From Candidatus Omnitrophota bacterium (GTDB lineage: Bacteria; Omnitrophota; Omnitrophia; Omnitrophales; Aquincolibacteriaceae), in NCBI GenBank assembly GCA_020632475.1, contig JACKFM010000001.1, forward strand, positions 272,125 to 336,124: a stretch of DNA of 64,000 nt. Reading direction: 5' to 3'. A program made the translations under genes and the position numbers. How positions within the stretch are numbered: the stretch's first letter is position 1; every line of letters starts with the position of its first letter. Shown in pieces: positions 3,736 through 45,244 of the stretch. Below the pieces are notes generated by a model. The model ran no database searches, was not told where the DNA came from, and saw only the letters and a list, made by a program, of their open reading frames with translations.

Positions 3736-3843
3736 TTTTTGAATATTTCACCAGTCCGCAAAGATTCTCCGGCGCTCAGACATCCTCGGTCCTTACGGGC
3801 CTGCGGAACTCGCGCCGGGAGAACTTTCGTCCTGTTGAAATAA
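3736..3843 (+). repeat. copy 1 of a roughly 105-bp structured intergenic repeat (candidate ncRNA/regulatory element) between the divergent helicase and ppnP genes
   Basis: tttgaatatttcaccagtccgcaaagattctccGGCGCtcagacatcctcggtccttacgggcctgcggaactcGCGCCgggagaactttcgtcctgttgaaata aligns at roughly 90% identity with 8944-9046. Terminal inverted arms are tttcaccag / ctgGtgaaa. Confidence 0.6.
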
Positions 3844-3934
3844 CATCAATTTTTGATTCTTTCTTTTGCAGGGATGACAAGAAAACCTGTACACGGCGTT
3901 AAAATAATATGTTTTCAATGAAAGGGAAAGTTCA

Positions 3935-5423: not shown

Positions 5424-5435
5424 GTCCTGTCCCCG
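5407..5435 (+). terminator. near-perfect palindromic hairpin (gggggcaggactTAAgtcctgtcccc) spanning the stop codon of the M15 peptidase gene
   Basis: 11-13 bp stem with one G-U pair and a ttaa centre. It shares the cctgtcccc arm with the intragenic gggacagg/cctgtccc repeat family. No strong U-tract follows, so its function as a terminator is uncertain. Confidence 0.35.
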
Positions 5436-5529
5436 TAAAGGTCTTTATGTTATATTGCGCAGTACTAGCAATTTTGAGTTCAGTAACTCACAATTTTAAG
5501 ATTGAAAAGGTGCTAGAAAGGATGTATTC

Positions 5530-8943: not shown

Positions 8944-9046
8944 TTTGAATGTTTCACCAGTCCGCAAAGATTCTCCGACGCTCAGACATCCTCGGCCCTT
9001 CGGTCCTGCGGAACTCGCGTCGAGAGAACTTTCGTCCTGGTGAAAT
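8944..9046 (+). repeat. copy 2 of the roughly 105-bp structured intergenic repeat, immediately after the phrB stop
   Basis: Same element as 3736-3843. The internal stem ccGACGC...GCGTCg replaces ccGGCGC...GCGCCg of copy 1, a compensatory double change that preserves pairing. Confidence 0.6.
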
Positions 9047-9106
9047 AGCTTCTAATTAATTTTCACTTAATGACTTAGTGTTTAGATAGATAAGGTAGAG
9101 GTGTGT

Positions 9107-37200: not shown

Positions 37201-39994
37201 AACAGCGATTGACGCTGAAGTTCAGTCATTAGAGCAATATCTGCAAAATCAAAAATCCGAACTGAGAAGCAAGACAAGCGAGAAAAGAGAACATAAGGAC
37301 TGGTACTTTATTAAACAAAGAATTACGGGAGCCTATCAAGGTCTGTTTTTATGGAGACCTGCGGGATTTCAATATAAACCCGGTTTTTTTGAAGCATCCA
37401 AAAAAAATTCAAATGGTGAAGATCAAACCGTGCGCACACTCATCGCGGCGGTTTTTGCCTATACTGAAAAACGAACGGCGGAGGCCACGCCTCAACAGAA
37501 AATGATTGCCGCCAGAATGCAGACCCTTCGGGAGTCTTCGGCTGTAATCAGTATCGAAGACTATCCATTCCATTTTTTAAGACCGGGCGACGCAGTAAAA
37601 TTACCTGAGGCGACACGCGTTTCAGTGAGACGCCGCGCCATTCACATTTCGCGAAAATTGGTGGATGCGCTTAATCCCGAATCTGAACTGGATCTGGCGA
37701 TTCTGGCGTACTATTTAAATCGCGCTCAATATCAAATTGATCTTTATCATGACAATGCGGTTGCTCAAAAGCCAATTAGTGAAGCTCATCGAAAGATGAC
37801 CCGTGCCCGTGTGCGTCCGGATTATAAGGACCGCCGGTTTTTCTTTGGGAGCTTTGATTCCGAACAGGTTGGCTTCAGGTTTAAAGAGCTCCAGGACACT
37901 GATGCGGAGCTCTTGCGGGGAGATATCCCGCTCGAACAAGCGGCCGAACAGGAAGGCGCAGTGACCTTTGCCAATCGTCTTGATGATATTTTTGGAGAAT
38001 TAGGCGCAGATGAAACCGTTCCTCATGATCAGGATCTCCTGGGGCTGCTGCTGGCGACGGCACGCAACTTTGAACGTCTTGGTGTCGTGTATGACTTGAG
38101 GGACGATCATGCCAAGGCCGAAGAATTCTATAGCCGTGCGATTAAACTCTATACTTATGCTTTAAAGATTGATCCTACGGGTTGGGGGCCTGCCTTAATT
38201 CAGGAAGAAGTCATTTTTACTCTTCTTCGGCATGGGCGCGTGAAGGAATTCATCCAGGCATTCAAAAAATTGTTTACCGCGGGATATACCTTGAAAGATT
38301 TCCGCCAGAGGCAAATGGAGTTTGCCGAACCGGTTCTTCTGGAATGGGCGGTTCAGGCACTGCCCGATATGCTTTATAAACTTCATTTTTACCTTGCGGT
38401 CTTTCACAAGACCGGGGATCTGAAAAAGGTTCGTGAAGCAATTGTGACTGTGCGTAAACAGTATCAGGAAGTTATTTTTGAACTTGATGCACGTAAGCGA
38501 AATGCCCGTCGTGTCGGTGCCGATGCTAAAAGATTTGTGTCTAGTCACGGAATTCCTCGAAAACGTTATGGTTTGAGAATAAGTCAGTTTGCCGAGACGA
38601 ACAGTCTTCTTCATCGGCGCTTTAAACAAATTCAGGCAAAACTTGAACGCCGTTTGCCGGGATTATTTATTTTCCCGGAAGCCGCCGAAATGCCTTTAGC
38701 GGCCGTCAGTCTTATGCAGCAACGGCCGATTGCTCAATCCAGACTTGAGCAGGCAAAGACTCAATTCGAGCAATTGGATCGCCTTACACTTGAAAATGAA
38801 TATGCAGCGGTCCAGGCGCTTGTGAGCGGTTCTGAGTTTGTCGGATTTAAAATGCAGGTCAGAGATGAAGAGGCTTTGCGTCAGTGGAGAGCTGCGGCCG
38901 GAGATCAATCCCAGCGCAGGCGTTTATATCTTCCCGTTGCATGGCCAAAACGAAAACTGACTGTTGAGGAAGCTCATGCCGTTTCTGATATTCTGGCCGG
39001 ATATAGTTTGGCACACATGGGCCGGTTAAAGCTGAATGATCCATCGTTGATTTATTACGAAGATATGATGCTTCGCCGGTACACCGTACTGAAAAAAACC
39101 GAACTTCGACGGCAGGCCGCAGACTTGGGGACGGGGGGAGAAATCAAGACTTCCGTCTCAGTTGAGCAACCGTCCATTCAGTCCTCGGCCCTCAGTCCTC
39201 AGTCCTTCAGTGTAACTGAGTCTGTGGACCGTGAACTGTCAACTGTCGTCGTTTCAGTTGAGCAACCGTCCACTCAGCCCTCAGTTCTCAAACCTCAGTC
39301 CTTGCATTTCATCCATGACGGTCCGCGTTTTGGAATCATCCCTTTGCGTTTTCTTGAAAGCATGGGAGCCGTTGCGGTCATGAAACGTTTCGGGGCCGTG
39401 CTCTTTGGTCCGGCCGCTTATGCGGATACCATCAGTGCCAACCCGCTGACATTGGCAGAGTTAGCGCCGGCGGCAGGGCCTGTTCGGCCGATTCGCAGAA
39501 CTGTTTCCGATGAACGCAAAACCAAAGCTTTGGCCGCTCTCGGGATTAAGCAGGAAGGGGGTGCCTATGTCATGGGTTCCGGCTTTGCTCTGGAATATGG
39601 TGCATTGGCCGCATGGCATGAGATCTTTGGCAAAAAACCGGTTGTGGTGATTGTCCGCAACACTGAAGAACGCCGAAAAATCGAACAATATAATAAAGAG
39701 GTTCTGGTTAAACAGGGGTACCCGTCTGTTTTAATTGCTGATAATTTTCGTCAGGCCCGGACACAGATTGAAAAAGCGGTTTCTCAAATAGATGCGTCCC
39801 TGCGCGTTCAGGGCTTTTTCGCAACGGAGGATCTGGACCTGGCCGCTGAAGCCGAAGCGCTCAAAAAGCAGCTGGCTGATTTTTCGATTTATATACGCTC
39901 GCAAAACGAATTCCAGCGGTTTATTCGTGCTGCCCATCTCGAAGACATTGTTCAGACCTTCCTGGCAGCAAACGAGGTTTCCAGCGCTGCGTAA
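13226..39994 (+). CDS. giant multidomain protein 1 (8,922 aa) with signal peptide, conserved N-terminal domain, Nudix module, coiled-coil megaregion, polytopic membrane region and TPR-like C-terminal region
   Basis: Uninterrupted 26.8-kb ORF. Domains, in order:
- N-terminal signal-like MLMQKTKKQYLKIIAVLTAVVFTLTSLELQPLARA.
- Nudix box GX5EX7REUXEEXGU (...AEAALRETIEETGAK) at about 15900-16460.
- Lys-rich stretch KKKKDKKEKKKKRKENR at about 22435-22500.
- E/Q/R/L-rich heptad-like region at about 24400-30400.
- Hydrophobic helices at 31590-34530.
- TPR-like repeats at about 36100-36800.
The N-terminal roughly 450 aa are homologous to the start of giant ORF 2. Confidence 0.9.
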   Translation: MLMQKTKKQYLKIIAVLTAVVFTLTSLELQPLARAMQVAPAAVSGEISPHSVFELNLPPELGVIQNLISGDRGAIVHLQAAHGNYDAQKKIENILHYLKDQYGMNLLLVEGSAFKLRPERIRFFPKQMNLNREILEGLAHKALVKGAELFLAEDKGAEAYGIENLETYKADAEAFRSVMEHREQIENFLKRLHQDIEALKAQTLNPVLKNFLREAERYFQNTTLLGDRIHWLAAQSKDQLEIDFSNVIYQMDWPMLVRYFALKTVEGKLDSTAFEKERDAFLAVLVGDRAEALPAGQAGLSPLVTKRVTTLLTEPISENQLPDPETGLLFEKMAEALPLNFDYDAYPNVKLFIGHLILQSEIKAAPLYAEIDRLENQILEKLIRTPAEREVVEKIKQARLLEKLLHLELMPEEWKKLQTADLATGRKETGRQGEGVTGSESVIPAEAAPSGGQAGIHSTTEPSAFDLLPSLSAERPSVQSSRHTEGGQAALSPQSFDIPEDMQTIYQNALEFYRLAEKRDEAMLENIEAKLAETGKNKAVVITGGFHSQAFFEHFRENGYSYALVSPEIKELSGREAYVESMLKNSSAHRRQTADDGLATEIASPTARNDGSLSIIPAQAGIHSTTETSRPSALSPQSSLESLFLALSRQEIEQSGGNTRWLFQQVRNEIRNVLKRHDLKALDLKSELRTDATDESASAAAADTEMFAPEITWIRQASGEQGDQPYLIRLRLEQSKALSGGTGFQNRYLVEVAALDQMMDIDTVQNNPRLYAGSISLTFDWQGKLIKNEQFNLIFLIGIDLIFNEILKKDIQPFILQKLESLTGKAFNETNAELIDGAASFDDVLRHDRRLSPERDYNALTPGQFRNTFYAGYESGRIQHESMYEQWKATGGTEGEDKFHIGGMIILRKINGKWSFLLGRRNKTGKPFYRDYTIPVGKKESRIGLGLEFDRFFNQRKLEKLKTIGLTLHDGEIMDPVEFIAEAALRETIEETGAKHDPLYGPTVSDFVARLNDFEGYDPRVLISLFVYIDENDSPDVNETEELVDYRWVPLDVILISGDPGEAVQEFLGPGEHLIREFRETGLLHFQKILRDALTPWTKFPSKTELRIEPGLNLKSELRSGEEFLAAHQETVGTYSGQSILLIGSMNDGDLARSIAEALIAGYENFTLRLFDPDDGQVVQEFGTSLRQGLKQGVTVTATREVNEALKKFATQQATIIINVSPHEKPFDGFENVPESVHVLKATVTSDGSATQDVEQPSPQPSVLSPQSSALTEPSQSFMAKSAFERKLEALAEPGSVTERNDDGWKEIAVWFSSYMIEEIPDEELSDLDKEAREIFMRSLTVSGAYKDNRPKAITAFTNLKKSPQGIKQFKDLFAVHIAHINHIIKALREERIEEQGEIPKAGASDEERQRHDYKQLIRSDEKSVQYEFIPNFFSAGMADDGEDPRNAESRFILNPFYFYRESGLHGVTDPSVTAALLIDRDNPVRSIRVIESEGHRSLLLEFESDQTLLTPYGKKKSSYPIPGGYLRMFVLKQNEVDDSGWEAFGKNIEQDLGTYTFGEDEDVPAKKQKLEALFEKVTAGQVLVQDLYTQTTPQLIRNFSDYMGRSADEANAIYFHHWAIYEGRKKDNPESVTPVAIDRDFLEEHFQAWKENKPVPDIPLRAVTGEGMETVTEHERWIEEILDPENGWNQFEWLQALDAVLQSHLPEVWESTIASGPGTMQLAESEFQTGGGAEDAGEPLLGTSSSMLPGFETPGLFQPDEPRNFLLAESSKVWELNEYERKVVAEVTAENKEALRDIKNRLNYKIAEPEEVQIYLRAYAATLNRKLKSYRLDAEQGLPGTVEDNEAILDRPLEESIEAYRDGIRHLERRQEFGTWLHLASGGLVVSGSETDSRAAFNPAILLALRRAGFVPGYPVRDFNAQDYLSEHKEALDVHQNKNILIVGLSSKESEKLSIALAEQFETEGITITLVDEATTPAEAKDHEKAFRESYPNLHLKVITKPGEIQGALSEAGLIFKTHDSEKLFISEQKIPEGVRVLEVPLAAQQTIESLLDDRIRPEKLNVHNPLSLGRVNPIRRIIAVEGRGKTPPHLVVEFSSPAGGYSSKFIRLNILHESLPESPREDEMTDAFMKRVFEYNYAVLQGFEINGTESAEDRKRIIDGLKDLAAQGLILAETRYELKHDEEHIGRFADFTARSETEAKAIRAFYPAIYARDTLATHRMRLAQKLGFNLGMYGPQTAAIFLKRVHMIDVHPELSILRDEAESKGFFAPLIALSVAAEDDGSILLGDANAEIDSFMAKVLNVIGKARRPSIDLVGRLETVEALIQTKAESDAAGTANSKAWIIDTGDPEEDRTLAREIRYIFRLEVLYRLTYETFHSDNLIRGTHADGTSMRVKVWNALSQKAEQIWHSDTTSSRIWMLALNVNRDKWESFVAEQWPGFWQIFTEPETEDNGAFLAQNSGVMAINQRRLLPASLPETLGKFSKFTERDMPREKTGFDITAIPNRTTLTAEEIRAGITLKKFPAQKLNGGFEAILQSLKRSGIEDLARFKRKESRKMQAFLDDIVAIRELYEAGHYEEALRIVNRYVAFQPQPASAADGAVVSGDRAEALSPDSTAAASTAALLTGTGDEGAHIDWRGYLPEGDLIEPPVDGAAEALGEMQTRLIEKVKRRSGGTSVVTILHDLDRAGHIGQTFNVLMAALAKIAEGHEDDDTAAARALVDEIKILIPRQIKSGASADIDAFEEKTHEMSDDDALNELEVIETDFSQTVDVLRGPVAGEIFSDQLDEGTRAFEQSLEYLGKVRRVLESSIAMTHDAANHPETVRGLLQSSAELAGEFNAENQWGIRLGFARAAYARRFTDAALAGQTQTQTADLETGRVGDGETRQKEVGQAGRESVGVDAAEPTLQKSRRQLLAETQPEVSKHDPENPDELWTFVQSEGCEGCMIVQFTPGGWLYSTESQARVREAFNKNDQTRAKKRDADTVSNAMAAYRETSAGSVVIVPDERINLRGAWHDSGNKVLYFGEKVFRAATAAMIVVALEKHDLNGLNQAAAAYWKSVAQSAQPAAVPKKKKDKKEKKKKRKENRAAARGPQDLTAEIAILEGFPGMQEELRAVSVNESASPEVESPESPQHDVEPVQPVERLATSDVSTAESEGPKEAVEPVELPQSSRQTEGGQAVLSPQTPEAVESESQVVVEPVDSGPSTVDSSAAEIVEPVEPMDHGLPTVDSSGATEPPQPSNILDPALRVRFKESVQAGVIRGQVSANRMFLEKPNPLVGEFDQKIVLDTSEMPDGAFFVMPVSTPKDTVMPLVQAPDAVKRGRIAKIRRYVSQHTLDTQIMEHTDQVTALVKAGRAVKGEPKTRFEAIFDRGIELLLIPDASGKTVEQRMHETEVRYAGRHEEFEKTVRAVQDYNRWFLYYSSRFVDLTGRLKKKTGDNQQVDVEVLSEILTELARSEKTWPELQSEIKRIREHIPSSGTMNYQEARLLIGRGESIIGNMILDDMLSAASPDILQVVFYDARSTFFLEWYRTQKQAIPEGEDDLLRFEATLLMSVRMLVNYKLESQMTEQITEAAREFSANERMTRKVVSAGGLLYAGQTNRYFQGGGAIETSGEYAPNYSRIHSSAFYEKGDRVIFLYHSETGYPNPAEQQNYLNDSTILRESLEDNAGVYLGTIDAEGELRIFEYAGNDLGIETFEFVEAFDRALDKKFWAPIKTSALKSEDELRVERRRITAHQFAQIAEAELAQIPGMDQVKASRLMLDARRQFKPELDRLAAMKLKHPGAPPKAKNLQKAYKKQLKAVQVELDVVDDLIDSLAARLVMYISERIAAESPDHGDWKQIAIEGLSGIVPPRWVPVEELEVPAQPVPAGKSPAAGLSDERQAKLASQIDQVIESVISKTEMTDGDEIAALRAFAHTQWDHGGSPGYARLKAAWNQNRAVFVQISALQGVEPGDLQAVETALSHSVQATRPQARIEQAQKELLSRMADAVLTEIEEALGAVYAGARAELRQQVRSEIRIEAVEVLDEKLTRVEAAMALMQRFPDLADAERMTQLNRAKARIQSIRLAAPLLFRFDQAHPEITAESAKTVRQLLTDARDVLASIQEFNVPEDSARLIETRNRLIYRYAEVVQAAVPQDPTGPDPQSAGLASAAAALLTEFHEPDFQTAIDALQRLVSSAQRRKAAEQMVESLTGLQPGLQDESLTSAVAVRVREVLEGVEGFLTGPDAQEDEWSERVRNLRDDMIAQISRRIDQVGHDKGETAADLQKTVNQLKAIREGLEGTEVPVLSPVIERLHALEETVGHEFHAAVLRERPLYEDFREIEGPSDYVKDLLIRILNVESQGDKTPAQWKALHQEFFDYFLVLEGNTARPGQAQPNAAEAEVWNKARKAFDGEAGPKMQAYRHEFGFTAGKLLTKEFAMQRDPKNKVGSFGSESDQPLSAKRIQLQPTKTLLLMALNMARIFAGQAAEAQEHRGPPLEAMPEANPAMNAEEAFAFMREYLINDNRRDGFLYYNNQPLALGYLSSSAVHENSVGAPINLSHLEAARHSGLMPVLGIEQFLRAISFNGVKKVDLIEANADNPPALAVWFAKPFTESFTEFAYEGATLVVLKEAPQEGRDIHDLVESSGEQINRYVFSESDDADEKARKTAALLDLITEEKTLYRGTYRVSFFAENAVKLGRTMGRTRAEEWLITQSVKLGFVSPQAYIKRYGESAPTYAEWYHRFRLFKQVQRPLLAFFTGAGPRSSELERENIAFMIQNELTLPLARLLIARSGKDWLIDPRAVAGFAAGMNKFIARGVVGSLDALAWANTELESNAARAAFSAEFGLSLLSEFQRKNLQGLDIYDLRQALVRETELVFGVNLNIDVRTYRSPVKSAKDAAAVKVQIEQEDNALWNLFETPGDQQVSAEIEQRLEKRRQLGPDPVTVDCTSAESCAQGIADLTQWVRVRQTHPEVTDYLGVIESAVQARVLAERGNVRQALSEIEIILSQPGFDQHPKHAAVTSFGGYLNERLQRRASELPGLIFEALTAAQDQTTVDQLQGYAVELEALRGQTTDATESAQSSRQTEGGQAVLSPQSLIAIRQAYENGRLREAADQVSGLAQAPGPYQETLRQFAGRIEQEIEAKVTPLERQIQEFVQDLFKRVEDNLARAVSQSTADTKTALAEVERDLREVQARLGHLPQSDFLASERKRHEVFSAQIGRIRPAVEMIEEIEFLPGSFVPGDYEANQNQIRTLSGRVDTFIASELQDQTDADWILKIQNARQSLINEYTDEASETLTAQLEAIVSRGDFQAQSQGLAELQESIGTVRAFTAEFKVSKEDDLNRLEVAIQEKEKELQAKNERVQGVPVIIERMRKAISDIQSGEQVSGGRVKRLLAEGYELGRTLVPAKDEGELVALGNARKDLAGEYSEGLLLELDQRKDLAHGRDADGKPVEAVEWTPQEMRDFLLRLNDLLNVVRSAPQDRTDPDTDHLYLGIQDEMAVILRQGAGLAEGDILRLHRAKTKKSEETTIDIRIDRIDSEEVHFSVTLQGSEVALSGHDLMEETRHENAWPFKAAEVSDKRQKNPGESSMTVTLGYPSDGSEAASPDWVFGLGEAKPLFIASSRARNAQGTADEQIFEFLQKNADILLSAWHLDEDADYVTLALYERDESEEWSLEFVENPENVQWRRDAERALENKEERAGEFQELIEQLQLAELEINDEETDFVPTLENVHRVGNLLNDAAKQYKRLVPGVDDEMMQSVTDALTSTLQAFFTSILTAIYYETGENQDGPEISAVLNPDTNLNLNFVHELMLIVGEAIRTLSDFESYEQVLREQWLYPLFEMENYFLKQHGVALVENSRLTAVERTSGEYSDFNFEGMAQDRQSGRIQKGLISWTARTPAAQLPLIGRFINYKYLDELKGETDPWMAYVHEVISRSKRRQRTQKDGGVVTTRFNIHSYGNDEDKRWFNAFALYDLDTLIGLVGDAETGQSGSLGLEEEDIDRLMFEAPRLAMQVLETEHETADERVYVTQTLYTSDPAADTVNFLRGRYLLHFSGEKENDPVRAEAWKAVNEAFEKYRESFSPKSELRRQTADLVTGRLGVPLTSRLRWTSEESESESQKVESSLYPEQSLRRSEARRTTFFSLLSLLNYFSVSAGLGFLAHILFPAIPYLPAAVFVAAAVFTGISPFGEEWLMSLADRLRWIPESWVKKRAVRFYDQIASRAHALKDSEMIEGLKRINPASPVRLLMDHILIRVMQMSDTIGFYIEQVLFKFLFNYTAVEQILELGYQNRYRQLRNTIHNAYSEYLMDRLEDSFHRFYISYQLAARSLRYAYWPMLPWIFARFNFNSLILLASLFRTGPPQSAYAAPSRFTVLSYNLKTLWFLVRALIFQEDLTAADESFFIFSRSLVDDVLDTPYSVNHQDRPHLVRYILDLMTRAVSEQPGLTDREIRHWQWIYVTQNHERRAFSVLRHSARYRNVLRRFMSNERMIIESTGALSLRKLLQTLDLETADQVSLEMSKQSRHREDEFREVFEGHISVKNQLFHWKYHAVWAGVVLMLVTAVMFLAGAHGVFMMPALHFYALFMPITIASFAALAFSLIYRQVKHQLDAELKEKTAAHNEDQNTKIGFKPIHSRVVLARYIPPGQDLHQSVLAQITDVDHERRSVSLKYIQDGRLIYRPKVNMRFIQVLQATQDSMALLARPGFLGEREYPETMDAQVLERFTGEFTRLVKEGADGDSFALQQRPHFIKFVLGEYFDFLSSEHRDESEGWLDDLMKSTLADKYHSVFVSPRGYGRYLPDLIKEFYRKKYIDPAGRWNWPVLYKTFGYDFVSNLRIDLMKSRESLNAQAHLNQLESIEGKLATRAFVLRIALMAAFLLLPLSLVFAAMPNSLVFIASVASVTLFFGVDFFTGRLVDTLVDYSLKLKNPHQPLNAYADQVLSQLQIGDEVEYFDPRYAVVQKGLLRQELEKDQPLVAEVLSINRQNRTVRLRYYYSRVSSDGLESHYTPDQVEETSVLGGRIEKLELISELLDDQLNAGVPRHAELRTLTSLKRLDDKVIEIYEARMAALKAKSQKHRIFFGVIALAIAALAAISWQTAILLAAPYVIYELARILFFDHTTVRWPVLGAFFRAIPAREMQFPALQRLYADPVQYWNQRSVRQRAQRIADVAEQRFKDEVKIVRTVEHTADFAENAADVLKLVTGRGGEIQAGKGFDQRVFTRFKRVYAVDEDAVFMLTRDGRFYLMHKLESGTQEASGRVQAIFEAESLGAVTVPIQVSGRLIRKTVQQGKQRVEESVTKIDGVPYAFYKIENYPDWFFNPEVTLEQKQAMLVREQSPDLVTGRPGDGETGRKETGRQGDGVSEFKSQQVEGPESPQVPVESAQSPVPSPQSSEATEPAPLLPSDEQPATSDINPAELENVSADTSDQTVQLVRDHTAYAADLSGESAGAEELRDALAHLTHAVQLGLKLLEVAAQDADTRDLLYIAGQFKSLSDALERAFEIRGRYRALVPEAEEPSLDENPLILMTATLWEDEFMKYLPVPQAARILDAAARMASEEQYSESDLADSLWATALQTLDRDWTLDLGFERLMYQKQEAVQKEKVKTAEVDSENPALKKQLSDFYSGVGRLRKGTPDNEAIIAVALQIFEAISDWPDEYYQRKDVQGMSIAMSQLAGIMREHDLYERAVELLKLYVSKTENQPNAFILFHLGGIYRRAAHFAWKANDRKTNIRYLERSLFYYAQGLPGANPDEKLDPVLEGLANQVIPTLLKAAREGRFDWKMLNPTLRQFVTSIRLLMRRHEWIPQSHGQLLALALNKIVLDWKTQGLYQAAQLSAELAYALDPVNPYVLFNLADIAVAQGRLDKAREYREEIVRLNETAVTPFDLRVLNSLIRQAERKEDRTDKVFAPAHQVVMSTKRRRVLETKLRTLPQTAAAEIDETTPAETDWNALIALLDEIEVFHRRVRTGELVDGAVFEEQERLQNQIAGYEFEEIGRFYALLYLDSTDETAIDAEVQSLEQYLQNQKSELRSKTSEKREHKDWYFIKQRITGAYQGLFLWRPAGFQYKPGFFEASKKNSNGEDQTVRTLIAAVFAYTEKRTAEATPQQKMIAARMQTLRESSAVISIEDYPFHFLRPGDAVKLPEATRVSVRRRAIHISRKLVDALNPESELDLAILAYYLNRAQYQIDLYHDNAVAQKPISEAHRKMTRARVRPDYKDRRFFFGSFDSEQVGFRFKELQDTDAELLRGDIPLEQAAEQEGAVTFANRLDDIFGELGADETVPHDQDLLGLLLATARNFERLGVVYDLRDDHAKAEEFYSRAIKLYTYALKIDPTGWGPALIQEEVIFTLLRHGRVKEFIQAFKKLFTAGYTLKDFRQRQMEFAEPVLLEWAVQALPDMLYKLHFYLAVFHKTGDLKKVREAIVTVRKQYQEVIFELDARKRNARRVGADAKRFVSSHGIPRKRYGLRISQFAETNSLLHRRFKQIQAKLERRLPGLFIFPEAAEMPLAAVSLMQQRPIAQSRLEQAKTQFEQLDRLTLENEYAAVQALVSGSEFVGFKMQVRDEEALRQWRAAAGDQSQRRRLYLPVAWPKRKLTVEEAHAVSDILAGYSLAHMGRLKLNDPSLIYYEDMMLRRYTVLKKTELRRQAADLGTGGEIKTSVSVEQPSIQSSALSPQSFSVTESVDRELSTVVVSVEQPSTQPSVLKPQSLHFIHDGPRFGIIPLRFLESMGAVAVMKRFGAVLFGPAAYADTISANPLTLAELAPAAGPVRPIRRTVSDERKTKALAALGIKQEGGAYVMGSGFALEYGALAAWHEIFGKKPVVVIVRNTEERRKIEQYNKEVLVKQGYPSVLIADNFRQARTQIEKAVSQIDASLRVQGFFATEDLDLAAEAEALKKQLADFSIYIRSQNEFQRFIRAAHLEDIVQTFLAANEVSSAA
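14084..14130 (+). repeat. intragenic hairpin repeat, family C (ggggacaggg...cctgtcccc), in-frame in giant ORF 1
   Basis: ggggacagggccgaagccctgcctgccggacaggcgggcctgtcccc, encoding GDRAEALPAGQAGLSP. The same arms occur at 21027-21056, 55038-55066 and intergenically at 42574-42599. Confidence 0.7.
14483..14548 (+). repeat. intragenic G-rich repeat, family D (cagacttggNgacggggaga...), in-frame in giant ORF 1
   Basis: cgcagacttggcgacggggagaaaagagacggggcgacagggtgaaggggtgacggggagtgag, encoding ADLATGRKETGRQGEGVTGSE. Related copies at 21842-21880, 31454-31480, 35190-35270 and 39119-39142. Confidence 0.7.
14661..14710 (+). repeat. intragenic hairpin repeat, family A (cccgccaaacagaaggcggg core), in-frame in giant ORF 1
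   Basis: agtcctcccgccacacagaaggcgggcaggcagccctcagccctcagtcc, encoding SSRHTEGGQAALSPQS. Near-identical copies at 22727-22777 and 28405-28463. An intergenic relative is at 42621-42645. Confidence 0.75.
15071..15142 (+). repeat. composite intragenic repeat: perfect hairpin attcctgcGCAAgcaggaat followed by a cctcagccctcagtcct unit (family B)
   Basis: 15071-15090 is an 8-bp stem with a 4-nt loop. 15111-15142 is ctcggccctcagccctcagccctcagtcctct. Together they encode IPAQAGIHSTTETSRPSALSPQSS. A related copy (caagcaggaatccatagtacaaccgag) sits at about 14580-14615. Confidence 0.65.
16988..17032 (+). repeat. family B (gagcaaccgtcc-cctcagccctcagtcctcagtcc) intragenic repeat
   Basis: gagcaaccgtcccctcagccctcagtcctcagtccccagtcctct encodes EQPSPQPSVLSPQSS. 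Related copies at 35321-35356, 39161-39210, 39256-39303 and 45763-45808, plus an inverted intergenic cluster at 43881-43938. Confidence 0.7.
21027..21056 (+). repeat. family C hairpin repeat copy in giant ORF 1
   Basis: cggggacagggctgaagccctgtccccgg encodes SGDRAEALSPD. Perfect 9-bp arms gggacaggg / ccctgtccc. Confidence 0.7.
21842..21880 (+). repeat. family D repeat copy in giant ORF 1
   Basis: gcagacttggagacggggagagttggagacggggagacc encodes ADLETGRVGDGET. Confidence 0.65.
22727..22777 (+). repeat. family A hairpin repeat copy in giant ORF 1
   Basis: cctcagtcctcccgccaaacagaaggcgggcaggcagtcctcagtcctcag encodes PQSSRQTEGGQAVLSPQ. Confidence 0.75.
28405..28463 (+). repeat. family A hairpin repeat copy in giant ORF 1
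   Basis: gtccgctcagtcctcccgccaaacagaaggcgggcaggcagtcctcagtcctcagtcc encodes SAQSSRQTEGGQAVLSPQS. Confidence 0.75.
31454..31480 (+). repeat. family D repeat copy in giant ORF 1
   Basis: gcagacctggtgacggggagactggga encodes ADLVTGRLG, preceded by RRQT as in the other copies. Confidence 0.55.
35190..35356 (+). repeat. composite repeat block in giant ORF 1: family D, then a gtccggaaagtcctcaa unit, then family B
   Basis: 35190-35270 is cagacttggtgacggggagaccgggagatggggagacagggagaaaagagacggggcgacagggtgacggggtgagtgag. 35287-35313 is gaaggtccggaaagtcctcaagtccc, and the same unit occurs at about 22597-22620. 35321-35356 is tccgctcagtccccagtccccagtcctcagtcctct. Confidence 0.7.
39119..39303 (+). repeat. 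repeat block near the 3' end of giant ORF 1: one family D copy and two family B copies
   Basis: 39119-39142 is gcagacttggggacggggggagaa. 39161-39210 and 39256-39303 both start gttgagcaaccgtcc and continue ...ctcagtcctcagtcc. They encode VEQPSIQSSALSPQS and VEQPSTQPSVLKPQS. Confidence 0.7.
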
Positions 39995-40213: not shown

Positions 40214-41056
40214 ATGGACGACATCAAAGGCTCCATAATTTGGGATAATCGTGAACGGACTTACCGCCTGCATGTGCCGCTGCATTATTTGCCGGATCAG
40301 ATTTATCCGCTTGTGATTGTTCTGCATGGCGGAGCGGCCAATGCCGAATATGCGATGCGGATGTCGGAGATGAACCGGATTGCGGATGAAGAAAATTTTC
40401 TGGTGCTTTATCCCAATGGAACCGGTATATACAAACATGCGGTTTTGACGTGGAATGCGGGTAACTGCTGCGGGTATGCGCATGAACATCAGGTCGATGA
40501 CGTGGGATTTATCCGGTCGCTGATTGGGTACCTGCAAAGCCATTATGGAATTGATTCTAAGCGAATCTATGCGACCGGGATTTCCAACGGTGCGATGATG
40601 GCCTACCGTCTGGCCGTTGAAATGGCGGGTGTGATCGCCGCGATTGCGCCTGTAGCCGGGCCGTTTAATCACGCAGGAACAATGCCTGAGGAACCCGTTT
40701 CGGTCATTGCCTTTCATGGCCTTGAAGATCAACATGCGCCCTATTTGGGCGGCACAGGTCCTAAAACACTCTACCCGCGTATTGATCGACCGGTGCAGGA
40801 AAGTATCCGGTTGTGGGTAGAACATAATCAGTGTTCACGAGAACCTCAAATTGAAAAGAAGGGTAAGATCACCTGCGAAACCTATCATGGCGGCCGCGGA
40901 GAAAGCAGGGTGGTTCTCTATACCCTTGAAGAGGAAGGACATACCTGGCCCGGAGGGCAGCCGGGGCTGCGTAACGGCAATGTCGATCCCCCGACGCAGG
41001 AAATATCGGCCAGCCGGCTGATATGGGATTTTTTCAAAGCCCACCCCAAGTCTTGA
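40214..41056 (+). CDS. alpha/beta-hydrolase esterase of the PHB-depolymerase (LpqC/COG3509) family
   Basis: LVIVLHGGAANAEYAMRMS...LYPNGT...TWNAGNCCGYA and the nucleophile elbow GISNG are characteristic of the extracellular PHB depolymerase-type esterase family. No obvious signal peptide. Confidence 0.65.
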   Translation: MDDIKGSIIWDNRERTYRLHVPLHYLPDQIYPLVIVLHGGAANAEYAMRMSEMNRIADEENFLVLYPNGTGIYKHAVLTWNAGNCCGYAHEHQVDDVGFIRSLIGYLQSHYGIDSKRIYATGISNGAMMAYRLAVEMAGVIAAIAPVAGPFNHAGTMPEEPVSVIAFHGLEDQHAPYLGGTGPKTLYPRIDRPVQESIRLWVEHNQCSREPQIEKKGKITCETYHGGRGESRVVLYTLEEEGHTWPGGQPGLRNGNVDPPTQEISASRLIWDFFKAHPKS

Positions 41057-41081
41057 CAAGTTCTGTGAAAGTATATACAAT
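41053..41081 (+). promoter_or_regulatory. candidate sigma-70 promoter for the sugar-modification gene cluster
   Basis: -35 TTGACA (41053-41058, a perfect match), a 17-nt spacer, and -10 TACAAT (41076-41081). This is about 65 nt upstream of the epimerase ATG. It overlaps the first arm of a perfect 10-bp inverted repeat, gtatatacaa (41071-41080) / ttgtatatac (41101-41110). Confidence 0.45.
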
Positions 41082-41146
41082 TTCAAAATCAAGGCCTTGT
41101 TTGTATATACACAAGGGTCAATTTATTCTTATCGGGGGTATGATCC

Positions 41147-42565
41147 ATGAGTCAAAAACTGAAGACAAAATCCAAAAAACCCAAAATTCAGGGTAAGATC
41201 AAGACCGCTAAAAATTCAAAAGGCAACGAGAGTAAACTTATTTCGATCCGTATCCCTGAAAATGTCATTTCGAAATTGAGGGAAGTCGCCGGGAAAAAAG
41301 GCGATGGCGGATATCAGCATCTGATCAAAACTTATATTGCCAAAGGCCTCGTTAAGGAAGACGAACTTTCCGGAAATTTGATCAGCCAGGACACGGGCGC
41401 AAAAGAACCCGTTCCCGCCAAGAAAAAAGTCAAACCGATTTTAAAAGAAACCCTGAAGAAGATCGGAACGCCGGTACCGAAAACAGGGAAGAACGACCGC
41501 AGTAATGTGGCCCAACTGACCCAGTCGGATGTAATCGCCGAAGATATCCGGCAGCTGGCCAAGGCTCTGGAACCGTATTATTCCTTTTTTGCGGGGAAGA
41601 CGTTTTTGATTACCGGGGCTTTTGGTTTTCTGGGGCGTTACATTGTCAACTTATTAAAATATCTCAATGATGAAGTCCTTGAAGAAAAAACCAATGCCTT
41701 GCTTCTGGATAATTTTGTAACCGGCTATGAACAGCGCGTAATCCATGATAAGCATCTGCGTTTTCACCGTCACAATGTGATCGAGCCTTTTCAAACGGAT
41801 GAGGATGTTGACTACATCATTCATGCTGCCGGCATTGCCTCTCCGGCCTACTATACCAAGTTTCCGATTGAAACCATGGATGTCGGTACGATCGGTACAC
41901 GGAATATGCTGGAACTGGCTTATGAAAAGAATGTGAAGAGTTTTCTTTTTACGAGCTCAAGTGAAGTCTACGGTGACCCTGATCCAAAATTTGTACCGAC
42001 CCCCGAAGATTATTACGGCAATGTTTCGATTACCGGGCCGCGTTCCTGTTACGATGAGTCCAAGCGTTTTGGTGAAACGATGACGCTGGCTTACTGGCGC
42101 ACTTATGGCGTGCCGGTGAAAAATGTGCGGCCGTTTAATGTTTATGGTCCCGGTATCCGTCCGGATGATTTTCGTGTGCTGCCGAATTTTATTGAACATG
42201 CCCTGCGTAAGGAGCCGATTCCGATTCACGGTGAAGGCCGCAACACAAGATCGTTTTGCTACATCAACGATGCGATTGAAGCCATTTTTAGAATCCTTTT
42301 TTCCAATCATAACGGAGAAGCCTTTAATGTCGGCAATCCGTCCAACGAAATATCGGTCAAAGATCTGGCGCTGATGGTGGCACAAAGCATGCCCTATAAG
42401 ATTGATGTCGTACACATTGATCCGCCGCATGCGGTTTATGCCAGCTCGGATCCTAAGCGACGCTGCCCCGACATCTCTAAGTTGAAAAAATTGACCGGGT
42501 ATAAACCGCGTTACAGTCTTCAGGAAGGTATTTCCCGAACGATCCAATGGTTTTGCGAGTTTTGA
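41147..42565 (+). CDS. NAD-dependent epimerase/dehydratase (UDP-glucuronate decarboxylase-like extended SDR) with a roughly 150-aa lysine-rich N-terminal extension
   Basis: From about aa 150: KTFLITGAFGFLGRYIV (GxxGxxG), catalytic YDESK, and NVRPFNVYGPG. The N-terminal 150 aa are K-rich (MSQKLKTKSKKPKIQGKIKTAKNSKG...) and include a segment resembling ribbon-helix-helix/BrnA-like proteins (ISIRIPENVISKLREVAGKKGDGGYQHLIKTYIAKGL). No in-frame stop separates the two parts. Confidence 0.8.
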   Translation: MSQKLKTKSKKPKIQGKIKTAKNSKGNESKLISIRIPENVISKLREVAGKKGDGGYQHLIKTYIAKGLVKEDELSGNLISQDTGAKEPVPAKKKVKPILKETLKKIGTPVPKTGKNDRSNVAQLTQSDVIAEDIRQLAKALEPYYSFFAGKTFLITGAFGFLGRYIVNLLKYLNDEVLEEKTNALLLDNFVTGYEQRVIHDKHLRFHRHNVIEPFQTDEDVDYIIHAAGIASPAYYTKFPIETMDVGTIGTRNMLELAYEKNVKSFLFTSSSEVYGDPDPKFVPTPEDYYGNVSITGPRSCYDESKRFGETMTLAYWRTYGVPVKNVRPFNVYGPGIRPDDFRVLPNFIEHALRKEPIPIHGEGRNTRSFCYINDAIEAIFRILFSNHNGEAFNVGNPSNEISVKDLALMVAQSMPYKIDVVHIDPPHAVYASSDPKRRCPDISKLKKLTGYKPRYSLQEGISRTIQWFCEF

Positions 42566-42573
42566 CCCAAATA

Positions 42574-42599
42574 AGGGACAGGTCTTTAGACCTGTCCCT
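42574..42599 (+). terminator. perfect hairpin agggacaggtc-ttta-gacctgtccct after the epimerase gene (intergenic member of repeat family C)
   Basis: 11-bp perfect stem with a 4-nt loop, 9 nt after the stop. A second hairpin atccgcc-acaaagaa-ggcggat follows at 42621-42645 and matches the core of intragenic family A. Confidence 0.45.
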
Positions 42600-42710
42600 T
42601 AAAATGCGTAACTAAGGAAATCCGCCACAAAGAAGGCGGATTAAATTCGCACAAATCATTTATGCTTCTTTCGGTCGCATAAATGATGTGCTCATTTAAG
42701 GAGATTTCCC

Positions 42711-43133
42711 ATGGAATTAGAAACGATCCAGCATATTGATCCCGCATTTGTGGATGCCCGCGGTGAAATTCATAATCTTTTTGAAGGAACTCTTGGTCAT
42801 GTGGCGATGATTACTTCCAAAAAGGGAACCGTGCGTGCCAATCACTATCATAAAAAAGACCTCCAATATATTTATCTGGTCAGCGGCGCTTATGAAGCCC
42901 ACAGCTGTCCTATCGATGATCCTTCCAATAAACAGGTGCTTCAGGTGAAACCCGGCGATATCGTTAAGACTCCGCCGCTTGTCGCGCATGCTCAGAAGTT
43001 CACCGAAGACTCGGTGTTTCTGGCTTTTACGACATTGCAGCGCGAAGACGGGAAGTATGAAGAAGATACCCTTGCTTTCCCGGTCATTGAAGGCGCTTAT
43101 CTGAACAAAAACCTGACACAGGCCAAAGCGTAA
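42711..43133 (+). CDS. WxcM/FdtA-like cupin (putative sugar 3,4-ketoisomerase)
   Basis: 140-aa cupin fold with the VRANHYHKK...Q.IYLVSG pattern typical of the FdtA/WxcM C-terminal domain. Assigned from size, motifs and sugar-pathway context. Confidence 0.55.
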   Translation: MELETIQHIDPAFVDARGEIHNLFEGTLGHVAMITSKKGTVRANHYHKKDLQYIYLVSGAYEAHSCPIDDPSNKQVLQVKPGDIVKTPPLVAHAQKFTEDSVFLAFTTLQREDGKYEEDTLAFPVIEGAYLNKNLTQAKA

Positions 43134-43147
43134 AGTAATCGGACAGT

Positions 43148-43879
43148 ATGAATAAGATCGTCGTTATTACGGGAGCAAGCAGAGGGCTGGGGCTGAGCCT
43201 CGCCGAACGGTTTTTGCAAAACGGGGATACGGTGATCGGCTTGAGCCGGACCGAACGCTACTGGAAATCCGCAAAAACCGCTTTGACCTGCCCCGAAAAA
43301 TTCATACTCAAAAAAGTTGATTTGTGTTCAGAGACACAGATTAAGTCTTTTTGGCGGGAGCTGATTAAAAAGTATAAGCGCATTGATATTCTGATCAATA
43401 ATGCCGGATACGGCGGCGGGTTGGCGAAACTCGAAAAACTTTCTCTGAAAGAGTTTGAAACGAATATCAATACCAATCTGCTTTCGGCTTTTTTGATGAC
43501 GAAATATGCGCTACCCATTTTTCAAAAATTGAAGCAGGGGATCATTGTGAACATTTCTTCGATGGCGGGGGTCAGGGCGGTGCCGGGGTTATTTGCTTAT
43601 TCAGCCAGCAAATTTGGTCTTTCGGCATTGACCCAGTGTATCGTCAAGGAAAATGAACAGAGCCGTATCCAGGCTTATACCCTTTGCCCGGGCGGAATGA
43701 ATACCGAAATGCGCGCGCAAATATTCGGCAAAGCGGATGCTGCCAGACAACAGAGCCCTGATTTTGTGGCCGGTGTCCTGATGCAAATCCTTGAGGGTAA
43801 ACTGACGGTGGCAAACGGCAGTGATGTTGTGGTGCGGCATAGTAAAGTGACCATGATCCGCCCCTTGCCCAGCGCCTAG
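43148..43879 (+). CDS. SDR family oxidoreductase (short-chain dehydrogenase/reductase)
   Basis: VVITGASRGLGLSLA (TGxxxGxG), NNAG and catalytic YSASK motifs. Confidence 0.85.
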   Translation: MNKIVVITGASRGLGLSLAERFLQNGDTVIGLSRTERYWKSAKTALTCPEKFILKKVDLCSETQIKSFWRELIKKYKRIDILINNAGYGGGLAKLEKLSLKEFETNINTNLLSAFLMTKYALPIFQKLKQGIIVNISSMAGVRAVPGLFAYSASKFGLSALTQCIVKENEQSRIQAYTLCPGGMNTEMRAQIFGKADAARQQSPDFVAGVLMQILEGKLTVANGSDVVVRHSKVTMIRPLPSA

Positions 43880-43880
43880 C

Positions 43881-43938
43881 AGGACTGAGGACTAAGCGTA
43901 GAGGACTGAGTCCTCAGTGCTCATAGCTCAGTCCTTTG
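43881..43938. repeat. intergenic cluster of inverted ctcagtcct units (family B in reverse orientation), likely terminator
   Basis: aggactgaggactaagcgtagaggactgagtcctcagtgctcatagctcagtcctttgag. ggactgag (43903-43910) pairs with ctcagtcc (43927-43934), followed by ttt. The same 9-mer in forward orientation is tiled through both giant ORFs. Confidence 0.5.
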
Positions 43939-43954
43939 AGTTAAGGAGAGATGA

Positions 43955-45244
43955 ATGGAGATAGACGCTTTTAAGAAAAAATTATGCCGCTATTGCGACA
44001 GCCTTTTACCCGAATCTTTTTTGGATTTAGGCTCGATGCCGCTGGCCAATAATCTGCCGCGTAAAGAAGATCTGGATAAAAAAGAATTCGAATGTCCTTT
44101 GAGTCTTGTTCATTGTCCGTCCTGTCATTTGATTCAGCTCAGTCATGCCGTCCCCGCAGATTTGATGTTTTCGCATTACCTGTATGTCAGTTCCACGACC
44201 AAAACCTTCCGTGAGCATTTTGCGGCCTACGCCAAAGATGTGCGCGGCCGTTTAAAAAATGAAAAAGATCCGCTTGCGGTGGATATCGGCAGTAATGACG
44301 GGTTGCTCCTATCCTGTTACCAGAATGAAGGAATGCGCATTGTCGGGGTTGACCCTGCTGCAAATTTATGCAAAGAGGCCAATGAAAAGGGACTGACAAC
44401 ATTGAACCGCTATTTTGACGAAGAGTCGGTTAATCTGATTCTGAAAGATTTCGGTAAAGCGCATGTGATCAGCGGTAACAATGTTTTTGCTCATATTGAT
44501 GATATCCAGTCGGTGATTAAAAATGTGGATAAACTGCTGGATGATCAGGGATTTTTTGTCATCGAGTTTCCTTACCTCGGGACCATGCTTGAAGAATTGC
44601 TTTTTGACATGATTTATCATGAGCACGTTTCCTATATCGGACTTCATGCGTTGAGTCATTTTGCCGGCAAGTTTGGTTTTGAGATTTTTGATATTCTTCC
44701 GGTTGCTTCGCATGGAGGATCGTTTAGGGTTTTTATGCAAAAGAAGGGCGCCTCGCATCCAAAGGCAAAAATTGTGGATGAGTTCCTGACAGCCGAAAAA
44801 AACAAGGGTTATCTGACTGCTGAGGCCTATCAAGCCTTTGCCGGACGTGTGCTCAAAGTTAAAGAGGATTTTATGCAGTTGGTGTCGGAATTAAAAGCTG
44901 CAGGAAAGAGTATTTCAGGTTATGGTGCACCAGCCAAAGCCAGTACCATTATCAACTTTTACGGACTGACGCCGGACCAAGTCGATTATGTCGTTGATGA
45001 TAATCCGCTTAAACAAAACCGTTATATTCCCGGTGCACATATTCCGATTGTTCCCAGTTCTCATCTCGAAGCCCATCCCACGGATTATGTGGTGATTTTT
45101 GCCTGGAATTTTGCCAAGGAAATTACACAAAAAATCGGACATTTGCGTCAAAAGGGTGTGCAGTTTATCATTCCGCTCTTTAACCCCAGACAAGCCCAAT
45201 CGACCGAATCCCTCCAAAAAGCCTTTGAAGTCGCAGCGTCTTAA
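43955..45244 (+). CDS. NDP-sugar C-methyltransferase (TylC3-like: N-terminal zinc-ribbon, class-I SAM MTase core, C-terminal C-methyltransferase domain)
   Basis: CRYCDS...CPSCHLIQL zinc-binding module. SAM motif AVDIGSNDGLLL. About 410-430 aa, typical of TylC3/CloU-type sugar 3-C-methyltransferases. Confidence 0.7.
   Translation: MEIDAFKKKLCRYCDSLLPESFLDLGSMPLANNLPRKEDLDKKEFECPLSLVHCPSCHLIQLSHAVPADLMFSHYLYVSSTTKTFREHFAAYAKDVRGRLKNEKDPLAVDIGSNDGLLLSCYQNEGMRIVGVDPAANLCKEANEKGLTTLNRYFDEESVNLILKDFGKAHVISGNNVFAHIDDIQSVIKNVDKLLDDQGFFVIEFPYLGTMLEELLFDMIYHEHVSYIGLHALSHFAGKFGFEIFDILPVASHGGSFRVFMQKKGASHPKAKIVDEFLTAEKNKGYLTAEAYQAFAGRVLKVKEDFMQLVSELKAAGKSISGYGAPAKASTIINFYGLTPDQVDYVVDDNPLKQNRYIPGAHIPIVPSSHLEAHPTDYVVIFAWNFAKEITQKIGHLRQKGVQFIIPLFNPRQAQSTESLQKAFEVAAS

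Follow-up and report, generated by a model that had tools for sequence, protein, structure and literature searches.

A stretch of 64,000 nt from an uncultured Omnitrophota bacterium (the window, whose positions are used throughout unless a locus label is given) carries two giant open reading frames (ORFs) with a cassette of four plus-strand genes between them, at 41147-45244. The cassette encodes a UXS-like extended short-chain dehydrogenase/reductase (SDR), a small FdtA/QdtA-like cupin, a classical SDR and a TylC3/TcaB9-type C-methyltransferase. It is probably a self-contained, vertically inherited nucleotide-sugar operon, most likely for a rare C-methyl-branched sugar of an envelope glycan, and its adjacency to the giants would then be a local accident of one small clade. 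The positions, common strand and enzyme families of the four genes had been proposed in a first-pass annotation of the DNA and were confirmed by Pfam, PDB and fold searches. The same annotation had suggested that the giant proteins are glycosylated with the cassette sugar, a proposal that the comparison with related loci described below does not support.

Conservation of the cassette and its neighborhoods

Eighty metagenomic loci, reaching 10 kb to each side, were recovered with the C-methyltransferase, and 59 of them carry an ortholog of it. Such orthologs, 55-71% identical, occur in dozens of metagenome-assembled genomes (MAGs) of Omnitrophota, while the window's own proteins turned up on metagenome contigs only. 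The order UXS-like enzyme, cupin, SDR and C-methyltransferase recurs in about 50 of the 80 loci, mostly from Omnitrophota, and the identity per protein across cassette loci is 55-80%. Bacteroidota have the UXS-like, cupin and C-methyltransferase genes without the SDR. In Gammaproteobacteria, Elusimicrobia and one Woesearchaeote, the cupin and the C-methyltransferase are accompanied by a UXS-like gene with the same SSSE[VI]YGDPD...GPRxCYDESKR motif. A GFO/IDH/MocA oxidoreductase follows in four of these five loci and is likely the reductase in place of the SDR. Because the gene order or its core recurs in about 50 loci and across phyla, the cassette is an evolutionary unit.

The neighborhoods of the cassette differ between loci. 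A divergent gene for a GT87 membrane glycosyltransferase (GT87 was formerly DUF2029) lies immediately upstream of it in 20 of the 59 loci, all from Omnitrophota (in the range L005-L032, L054, L058 and L060; for example 6338-7618 of L015, on the minus strand). The GT87 gene keeps this place both where the Suf Fe-S operon comes next and where succinate dehydrogenase (Sdh) does. In about 12 further loci the cassette lies inside gene sets of the lipopolysaccharide (LPS)/O-antigen type, the neighbors being identified by Pfam. Co-localization with LPS genes elsewhere had been named beforehand as an outcome that would speak against glycosylation of the giants, and it was thus encountered in these loci, with GT87 in 20 more. 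Among the individual neighbors, GT2 is found near the cassette in 10 of the 59 loci, Wzy_C in 7, a carbamoyltransferase and GT4 in 6 each, DegT in 5 and GT9 in 3. Other genes recur as well, namely MTHFR (24 of 59), rpsB (20 of 59) and a histidine kinase (19 of 59).

Two candidates for additional glycan genes were rejected. The genes upstream of GT87 are those of the Suf operon or of Sdh and not glycan genes. The conserved 510-aa protein encoded after the cassette, for which an ArnT-like glycosyltransferase was considered, is actually a PAS-histidine kinase/GGDEF protein; it is followed by a response regulator, a GATase, MTHFR, fumarase and rpsB-tsf-pyrH. No polyprenyl-phosphate sugar synthase was found beside GT87 in the loci scanned.

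In a neighbor-joining tree of the C-methyltransferase, the gene context tracks the clade. The LPS-type loci are nearest to the outgroup, the GT87 loci form one large clade, and another clade has an N-terminally extended UXS-like gene. The window, L003 and L004 are the only directly giant-adjacent group and fall inside this last clade.

A separate arrangement was observed in two gammaproteobacterial MAGs (L062, 6803-13199, and L076, 305-12283). Here the module of cupin, C-methyltransferase and UXS-like enzyme (with the GFO reductase as well in L062) is preceded at a short distance by a type IV pilin gene and a gene for a 640-aa protein without a Pfam match. The layout is one that we take to resemble pilin-glycosylation islands.

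The UXS-like extended SDR

The first gene (41147-42565, plus strand) encodes an extended SDR of 472 aa of the UXS/ArnA type (Pfam Epimerase 3e-48, GDP_Man_Dehyd 1e-38). Its best solved relative is the human UDP-glucuronate decarboxylase UXS1 (hUXS1; E=8e-59, residues 151-469, 203 bits). The second-best distinct family reaches 135 bits, with dehydratases, epimerases and ArnA at 100 bits or lower. In the alignment with hUXS1, the segments TGAFGFLG, SSSEVYG, CYDESKR and GRNTRSF stand opposite GGAGFVG, STSEVYG, CYDEGKR and GSQTRAF, and the protein keeps GxxGxxG, S-x-E and YxxxK together with the Arg of the subclass (R619 in ArnA). None of the NCBIfam equivalog cutoffs is reached; the sub-threshold matches include the LegB and RmlB dehydratases.

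The motif SSSE[VI]YGDPD..GPRxCYDESKR is kept across phyla in the cassette-linked homologs. In all of these the catalytic Thr of hUXS1 and EvdS6 has been replaced by Ser. The corresponding T126 of EvdS6 has been implicated in the reductive half-reaction (PMC10338323); relative to that role, the substitution is suggestive only.

Residues 1 to about 110 (41147-41480) form a Lys-rich extension followed by a variable linker, and the catalytic core starts at about residue 113. The extension carries a conserved ribbon-helix-helix/CopG-like motif (kLISIRIPE..I..LR..A..KGd.GYQqLIKsYI), with a match to Pfam CopG_antitoxin that stays below the cutoff (E=0.0046). The extension is kept in 13 Omnitrophota loci, all of them lacking an adjacent GT87 gene.

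The C-methyltransferase

The last gene (43955-45244, plus strand) encodes an S-adenosylmethionine (SAM)-dependent C-methyltransferase of 429 aa that belongs to the TylC3/TcaB9/KijD1 type acting on nucleoside diphosphate (NDP)-sugars. Three Pfam families are matched above their cutoffs: Methyltransf_13, the zinc ribbon (3e-18, 66.2 bits against 31.3), Methyltransf_23 (1e-15, 57.9 bits against 27) and Methyltransf_14 (2e-53, 180.7 bits against 23.5). The match to TcaB9 (PDB 3ndi) has E=9e-87 over residues 9-406, and that to TylC3 (4rv9) has 2.5e-86. In the alignment with TcaB9, 'fahid' stands over 'lchip' and 'iyheh' over 'iydeh', with the His, Tyr, Glu and His all conserved. We take these to be His181, Tyr222, Glu224 and His225 of TcaB9 (shifted by 2 in the printed chain). 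The four Cys residues of the zinc ribbon are conserved in the same alignment.

The cupin and the classical SDR

The second gene (42711-43133, plus strand) encodes a cupin of 140 aa, whose assignment was made with an AlphaFold model and a fold search. By sequence, the match to Pfam FdtA (PF05523)/WxcM is sub-threshold (E=0.0085, 16.3 bits against a cutoff of 23) and that to PDB 4zu4 has E=0.03; a precomputed PF05523 match is present in some of the orthologs. The AlphaFold (AF2) model has a predicted local distance difference test (pLDDT) score of 93.3. In the Foldseek search with this model, ranks 1-18 are QdtA, FdtD and FdtA, with template modeling (TM) scores of 0.6-0.7 and E values of about 1e-7 to 1e-8. 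For the top matches taken together (QdtA, FdtD, FdtA, HCAN_0198 and WlaRB), the TM scores are about 0.65-0.70 and the E values 2e-8 to 3e-6. The ketoisomerases are followed by the RmlC-like epimerases ChmJ, StrM and EvaD. The model thus points to the fold of an NDP-4-keto-sugar 3,4-ketoisomerase, for which a role as epimerase would also be possible.

Four residues of the cupin, H45, H47, Q52 and H93, are invariant in 27 orthologs. H45-Y-H47 belongs to the strand that residues 41-47 form in the model and, going by position and pattern, may correspond to H49/H51 of FdtA/QdtA. Q52 and H93 occupy the positions of the classical cupin metal site, and a profile aligns them with the Mn-site motifs of oxalate decarboxylase. 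Because of these positions, a metal-dependent mechanism is possible for the cupin. FdtA itself is metal-independent.

The third gene (43148-43879, plus strand) encodes a classical SDR of 243 aa (adh_short, 1.6e-49). Its relatives in PDB and NCBIfam are generic, namely FabG, hydroxyacyl-CoA dehydrogenase and 17-beta-hydroxysteroid dehydrogenase types, and no characterized NDP-sugar ketoreductase is among these matches. It is presumed to be the ketoreductase of the pathway from its fixed position in the cassette alone.

Proposed pathway

The enzymology of a branched, C-methylated sugar, as had been read from the gene families in the first-pass annotation, is supported by the matches to UXS1, to TcaB9/TylC3 and to the ketoisomerase fold. 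The product is probably a C-methyl sugar linked to uridine diphosphate (UDP) and derived from a pentose. In the proposed route, the UXS-like SDR would oxidize C4 of UDP-glucuronate with its bound NAD+ and decarboxylate the intermediate, and a UDP-4-keto-pentose would be released. The TylC3/TcaB9-type enzyme would then use SAM to methylate the carbon beside the keto group. Next, the cupin may either shift the keto group from C4 to C3 or epimerize a neighboring center. Going by the gene context, the classical SDR would finally reduce the remaining keto group and yield a UDP-C-methyl-pentose. Transfer would be carried out by a glycosyltransferase encoded elsewhere; in the relatives, the candidates are the adjacent GT87 or the GT2, GT4 and GT9 enzymes of the LPS-type clusters.

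The release of a 4-keto-pentose for further tailoring has precedents in the UXS family, namely ArnA, CalS9/AtmS9 and EvdS6, the last of which feeds a pentose-derived branched sugar, the eurekanate of everninomicin (PMC10338323). No paper on a UXS-type decarboxylase paired with a sugar C-methyltransferase was found in the literature.

The giant genes and their proposed link to the cassette

The cassette belongs to five ordinary genes that are bracketed by the two giant ORFs within a long run of plus-strand genes. Giant 1 (13226-39994) encodes 8922 aa and giant 2 (45530-61735) encodes 5401 aa, both on the plus strand. At the N-terminus, both proteins have a signal/anchor segment and share a homologous domain, about 500-600 aa long (13226-15025 and 45530-46969). 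This domain has the pattern IQDAH..DAQ ... EG ... GGFH, with invariant AH..AQ, EG, FY, R and GGFH, and no Pfam match. In giant 1, Pfam recognizes only NUDIX and TPR, and in giant 2 only a domain of the GlnD uridylyltransferase type; no Pfam domain bearing on glycosylation was found in either.

The link was examined from both sides. Among the 59 orthologous cassette loci, a gene with the N-terminal domain of the giants occurs within 10 kb of the cassette in four and is absent in 55. It is directly adjacent only in L003 and L004, the two nearest relatives, and lies at a distance of 7 kb in L010 and of 3 kb in L030. For the giants, an alignment of six N-terminal domains was used as query; at least 328 metagenomic stretches encode the domain, and 80 loci were kept (L083-L162), many of which have ORFs of more than 3,800 aa that start at the domain and run past the fetched region. 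At E<=1e-5, homologs of the esterase (the fifth gene between the giants), the UXS-like enzyme, the cupin, the SDR, the C-methyltransferase or the GT4 encoded after giant 2 were found in none of these 80 loci. The synteny of cassette and giants that had been taken as a check is therefore not conserved in relatives. The family of the N-terminal domain is multi-copy, and several single contigs carry it twice; by a rough estimate, the proximity in 4 of 59 loci is about at chance level. Other large ORFs near the cassette (in L013, L026, L041, L050, L053 and L023) have no similarity to the giants of the window, and only one in L027 weakly matches the C-terminal end of giant 1 (E=1.5e-4).

As a conserved partner of the giants, the response-regulator/GGDEF/EAL gene upstream of giant 1 (10947-12575) is a stronger candidate than the sugar cassette. 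Homologs with 36-41% identity lie immediately upstream of the giant-type domain in seven of the 80 loci (L099, L124, L125, L129, L131, L133 and L141), and L147 has a weaker homolog (28%) about 5 kb upstream. Omnitrophota are already known for giant genes, and type II/IV secretion and pilus genes, PilZ proteins and glycoside hydrolases have been published as their conserved neighbors. The sugar cassette is not among these published neighbors.

The GT4 gene after giant 2 (61940-63097, plus strand) was confirmed at its predicted place (Glycos_transf_1, 1e-24), with known families matched in the C-terminal half only. It is a neighbor whose membership in the cassette is not supported. In a collection of 5.8 billion proteins, the best match apart from a fragment of itself covers 56% of the protein at 34% identity, and no match above 34% identity was found in any cassette locus. 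The cassette proteins, by contrast, have orthologs with 70-80% identity in related loci. The GT4 is thus an orphan and not the conserved partner of the cassette, and its suggested place in a system for glycosylating the giants is not borne out by an ortholog in any cassette-bearing genome. A match to SdgA is weak (30 bits against a cutoff of 800).

The repeats were a further reason for linking the cluster to the giants. Repeat family B (GGACAGG-N(4-10)-CCTGTCC) is present in four copies against none expected, at 14111 and 21040 in giant 1, at 42576 in the spacer between the UXS-like and cupin genes and at 55042 in giant 2. This sharing stands as a fact of sequence, while the specific link does not: because a related copy lies in an unrelated spacer (5404-5437) and the family is absent from related loci, repeat B is a dispersed, genome-specific element without a specific cluster-giant connection. 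A heptamer-type repeat has 18 copies (14695-17029, 22765, 28447, 35324-35353, 39183-39287, 43882 and 45777-45806), one of them in the spacer between the SDR and C-methyltransferase genes. Within the giants, in-frame repeats encode ..GQA[AV]LSPQS.. and similar peptides. Neither family occurs in L003, in L004 or in any other related cassette locus, and both were found only on contigs of the same genome (L001 and L002). The repeats are therefore dispersed hairpin elements of one genome that are tolerated in frame by the giants, and they suggest a recent spread of elements like repetitive extragenic palindromes (REP) or miniature inverted-repeat transposable elements (MITE).

The Ser/Pro/Gln-rich linkers, which had been put forward as natural O-glycosylation sites, fared no better. 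At a threshold of at least 65% S+P+Q over 20 aa, giant 1 has three such segments, each 20-24 aa long; giant 2 has none, and neither do the giant fragments from the relatives in which the adjacency is kept. Extended Ser/Thr-rich acceptor regions were likewise not found in the giants. Known O-glycosylated adhesins, unlike giant 1, have long serine-rich regions.

Alternative explanations

According to one alternative, the GT4 or another enzyme attaches the cassette sugar to both giants, with the repeat-encoded Ser/Pro/Gln stretches as O-glycosylation sites. The location of the cassette directly between the giants and on their strand fits this, as do the giant-type genes after the cassette in L003 and L004 and those 3-7 kb downstream in L030 and L010. 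The pilin gene beside the module in the two gammaproteobacterial loci is a further point in its favor, so that in some lineages the module may be used for glycosylating proteins. The distribution tells against it, with 55 of 59 cassette loci lacking a nearby giant-type gene, the other four near chance, and neither cassette nor GT4 in any of the 80 giant loci. Added to this are the orphan GT4, which does not co-occur with the cassette, the few short Ser/Pro/Gln segments and the lack of an oligosaccharyltransferase in the window. In L003 and L004, moreover, the downstream genes match the giants of the window in the N-terminal domain alone, and the repeats are absent there. We therefore regard glycosylation of the giants as very unlikely. 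The same low rating applies to the narrower idea that, in the clade of the window, L003 and L004, an undescribed UDP-C-methyl-pentose product decorates the neighboring giant membrane proteins, which would be the first giant Omnitrophota proteins known with a dedicated rare-sugar modification. A related alternative keeps protein as the target: the sugar would serve to glycosylate pilins or ordinary surface proteins via a membrane GT-C enzyme, and not LPS or polysaccharide. It draws on the pilin gene and the 640-aa protein in L062 and L076, on GT87 as a membrane glycosyltransferase that is a fixed partner in 20 Omnitrophota loci, and on the published secretion and pilus genes typical of the surroundings of Omnitrophota giant genes. 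It is improbable given the roughly 12 loci with classical LPS/O-antigen gene sets, the missing polyprenyl-phosphate sugar synthase beside GT87, and the finding of no pilin gene beside the cassette in the window or among the scanned neighbors of L015, L010 and L044.

A different alternative concerns the sugar itself. In a hexose route, the first enzyme would be an NDP-hexose 4,6-dehydratase or 4-oxidase, and the product would be a 6-deoxy-3-C-methyl-hexose of the virenose, evalose or vinelose type, as in the LPS of Coxiella. To our knowledge, all characterized enzymes of the TylC3 family act on 4-keto-6-deoxyhexoses, and the solved relatives of the C-methyltransferase are named TcaB9, D-mycarose 3-C-methyltransferase and a third sugar 3-C-methyltransferase. 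The cupins of the FdtA/QdtA type use dTDP-4-keto-6-deoxyglucose, and the sub-threshold matches of the first enzyme to LegB and RmlB would fit a dehydratase. In addition, 3-C-methyl deoxyhexoses are known LPS sugars (PMC3539893). The first enzyme nevertheless speaks for a UXS-type reaction: UXS1 scores 203 bits against at most 135 for any dehydratase or epimerase, and the GPRxCYDESKR and Arg signatures are those of the UXS type. It has S-S-E where RmlB-type 4,6-dehydratases have T-D-E. On balance, the hexose route is considered unlikely, and a pentose-derived product is preferred.

Several observations weigh against the envelope-sugar operon with incidental giant adjacency that is favored here. 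UXS-type enzymes usually re-reduce their intermediate to UDP-xylose. Moreover, the architecture of a UXS-type active site does not reveal which product is released (PMC10338323). With an E. coli Ugd sequence as query, a UDP-glucose dehydrogenase-like gene was found near the cassette in just two loci, a count that is weak evidence either way. Within the 64-kb window there is neither a GT87 nor an LPS gene, and the orphan GT4 is the only glycosyltransferase of this kind there. The order of cassette and then giant is kept in all three members of the nearest clade (window, L003 and L004), with which a functional link particular to that lineage would be compatible. Finally, giants more distant than the 10 kb covered on each side of the cassette would have escaped the search.

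Comparison with known systems and significance

The cassette is an ordinary member of known sugar-nucleotide systems with one unusual feature, the combination of a UXS-type decarboxylase with a TylC3-type C-methyltransferase. The pathways with TylC3, TcaB9 and KijD1 (to dTDP-mycarose, tetronitrose and kijanose) have the same three-domain SAM-dependent C-methyltransferase with the same catalytic residues. In these and in the proposed virenose pathway of Coxiella burnetii, whose product is an LPS sugar (PMC3539893), the C-methyltransferase is likewise coupled to an SDR that forms a 4-keto-sugar, a cupin and a ketoreductase. The cassette differs from them in that its keto-sugar former is a UXS/ArnA-type decarboxylase instead of a 4,6-dehydratase, and its nucleotide is probably UDP rather than dTDP or GDP. 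Furthermore, it has a classical SDR as its presumed reductase, where those pathways use an extended SDR or a GFO-type enzyme, and its host is an uncultured Omnitrophota bacterium.

With ArnA (which makes 4-amino-4-deoxy-L-arabinose (L-Ara4N) for lipid A), CalS9/AtmS9 and EvdS6, the cassette shares the extended SDR of the UXS family with its conserved catalytic residues. By analogy, a released 4-keto-pentose may feed the next enzyme in the cassette as it does in those systems. There, the next step is a transamination or a thiamine pyrophosphate-dependent acetyl transfer, whereas the cassette would use SAM-dependent C-methylation. The cassette clade also has the catalytic Ser for Thr and the ribbon-helix-helix-like N-terminal extension.

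The small single-domain cupins FdtA, QdtA, FdtD and WlaRB (about 135-140 aa) are the best structural match to the cassette cupin, and its His-x-His lies near the position of H49 and H51 of FdtA/QdtA, which are mutated in 2pae, 2pak, 2pam and 4o9g. It differs from them in sequence, with about 20% identity, a Pfam FdtA score below the cutoff and the extra invariant Q52 and H93. Known pathways of the FdtA/QdtA type lead to 3-amino sugars via an aminotransferase, whereas the cassette has no aminotransferase after the cupin. With the loci for protein O-glycosylation (GtfA/B and SdgA/B for serine-rich-repeat adhesins, TfpO/TfpW for pilins, and PglL systems), the window has in common a sugar operon and a GT4 near very large, probably surface-related proteins. 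Unlike in those loci, the target, transferase and sugar genes of the window do not co-occur in related loci, and there are neither long Ser-rich regions nor an oligosaccharyltransferase.

The tight association of a UXS-type enzyme, a TylC3-type C-methyltransferase and an FdtA-like cupin across phyla predicts a C-methyl sugar made by a new route, and we know of no characterization of such a route so far. It may be, and this is put forward as a tentative proposal rather than a probable one, that the widespread module provides the envelopes of Omnitrophota and Bacteroidota with a new branched sugar, derived from a pentose and methylated with SAM. The sugar may be a signature envelope component of an uncultured and possibly predatory or episymbiotic phylum. 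A C-methyl-pentose has the mass of fucose or rhamnose, that is, of a deoxyhexose, and compositional analyses could therefore miss it. For the mining of Omnitrophota giant-gene loci for accessory factors, the result implies that the proximity of this cassette to the giant genes should not be taken as functional.

Locus layout and minor features

The gene before the cassette (40214-41056, plus strand) encodes a 280-aa esterase of the PHB-depolymerase family (NCBIfam e_dPHAscl_type1 7.8e-53, above the cutoff) without a signal peptide. It is upstream of the cassette in the window and in L003 only (64% identity), and its membership in the cassette is not supported. A promoter-like site (TTGACA-17 nt-TACAAT, 11 of 12 consensus matches, plus strand) is present at 41053-41081; the number of such sites in the region is not above that in shuffles, so it is a candidate only. 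Its -35 box is the 41053 from which the feature in the first-pass annotation had been counted.

The 145-nt spacer between the UXS-like and cupin genes (42566-42710, plus strand) contains three strong hairpins, with a minimum free energy of -56.8 kcal/mol (z=-8.1). A copy of the dispersed GGGACAGG..CCTGTCCC repeat forms the first hairpin (42572-42600). The spacer matches no family in Rfam (25 bits, where the gathering score is 100), and its hairpins are absent from related loci. The 75-nt spacer between the SDR and C-methyltransferase genes (43880-43954, plus strand) has a hairpin formed by the CCTCAGTCC heptamer-type repeat, which also occurs in frame inside the giant genes; its fold has -29.3 kcal/mol (z=-3.4). 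A candidate intrinsic terminator between the C-methyltransferase gene and giant 2 was rejected, as its hairpin is no better than shuffles (z=+0.5), a result that speaks neither for nor against co-transcription of the two genes. No Rfam match was found in the cluster or anywhere in the 64-kb window. The GC content of the cassette is 0.45-0.47, the same as in the flanks, and with no GC anomaly, horizontal acquisition of the cassette is not supported.

Outside the cassette, an internally palindromic element of about 115 nt occurs twice in intergenic DNA, at 3738-3852 and 8944-9057, with 84-95% identity between the copies and 5.2 kb from one to the other. The two copies have no Rfam match and flank the genes for VanY, tryptophanyl-tRNA synthetase (TrpRS), an EEP-family protein and a photolyase.

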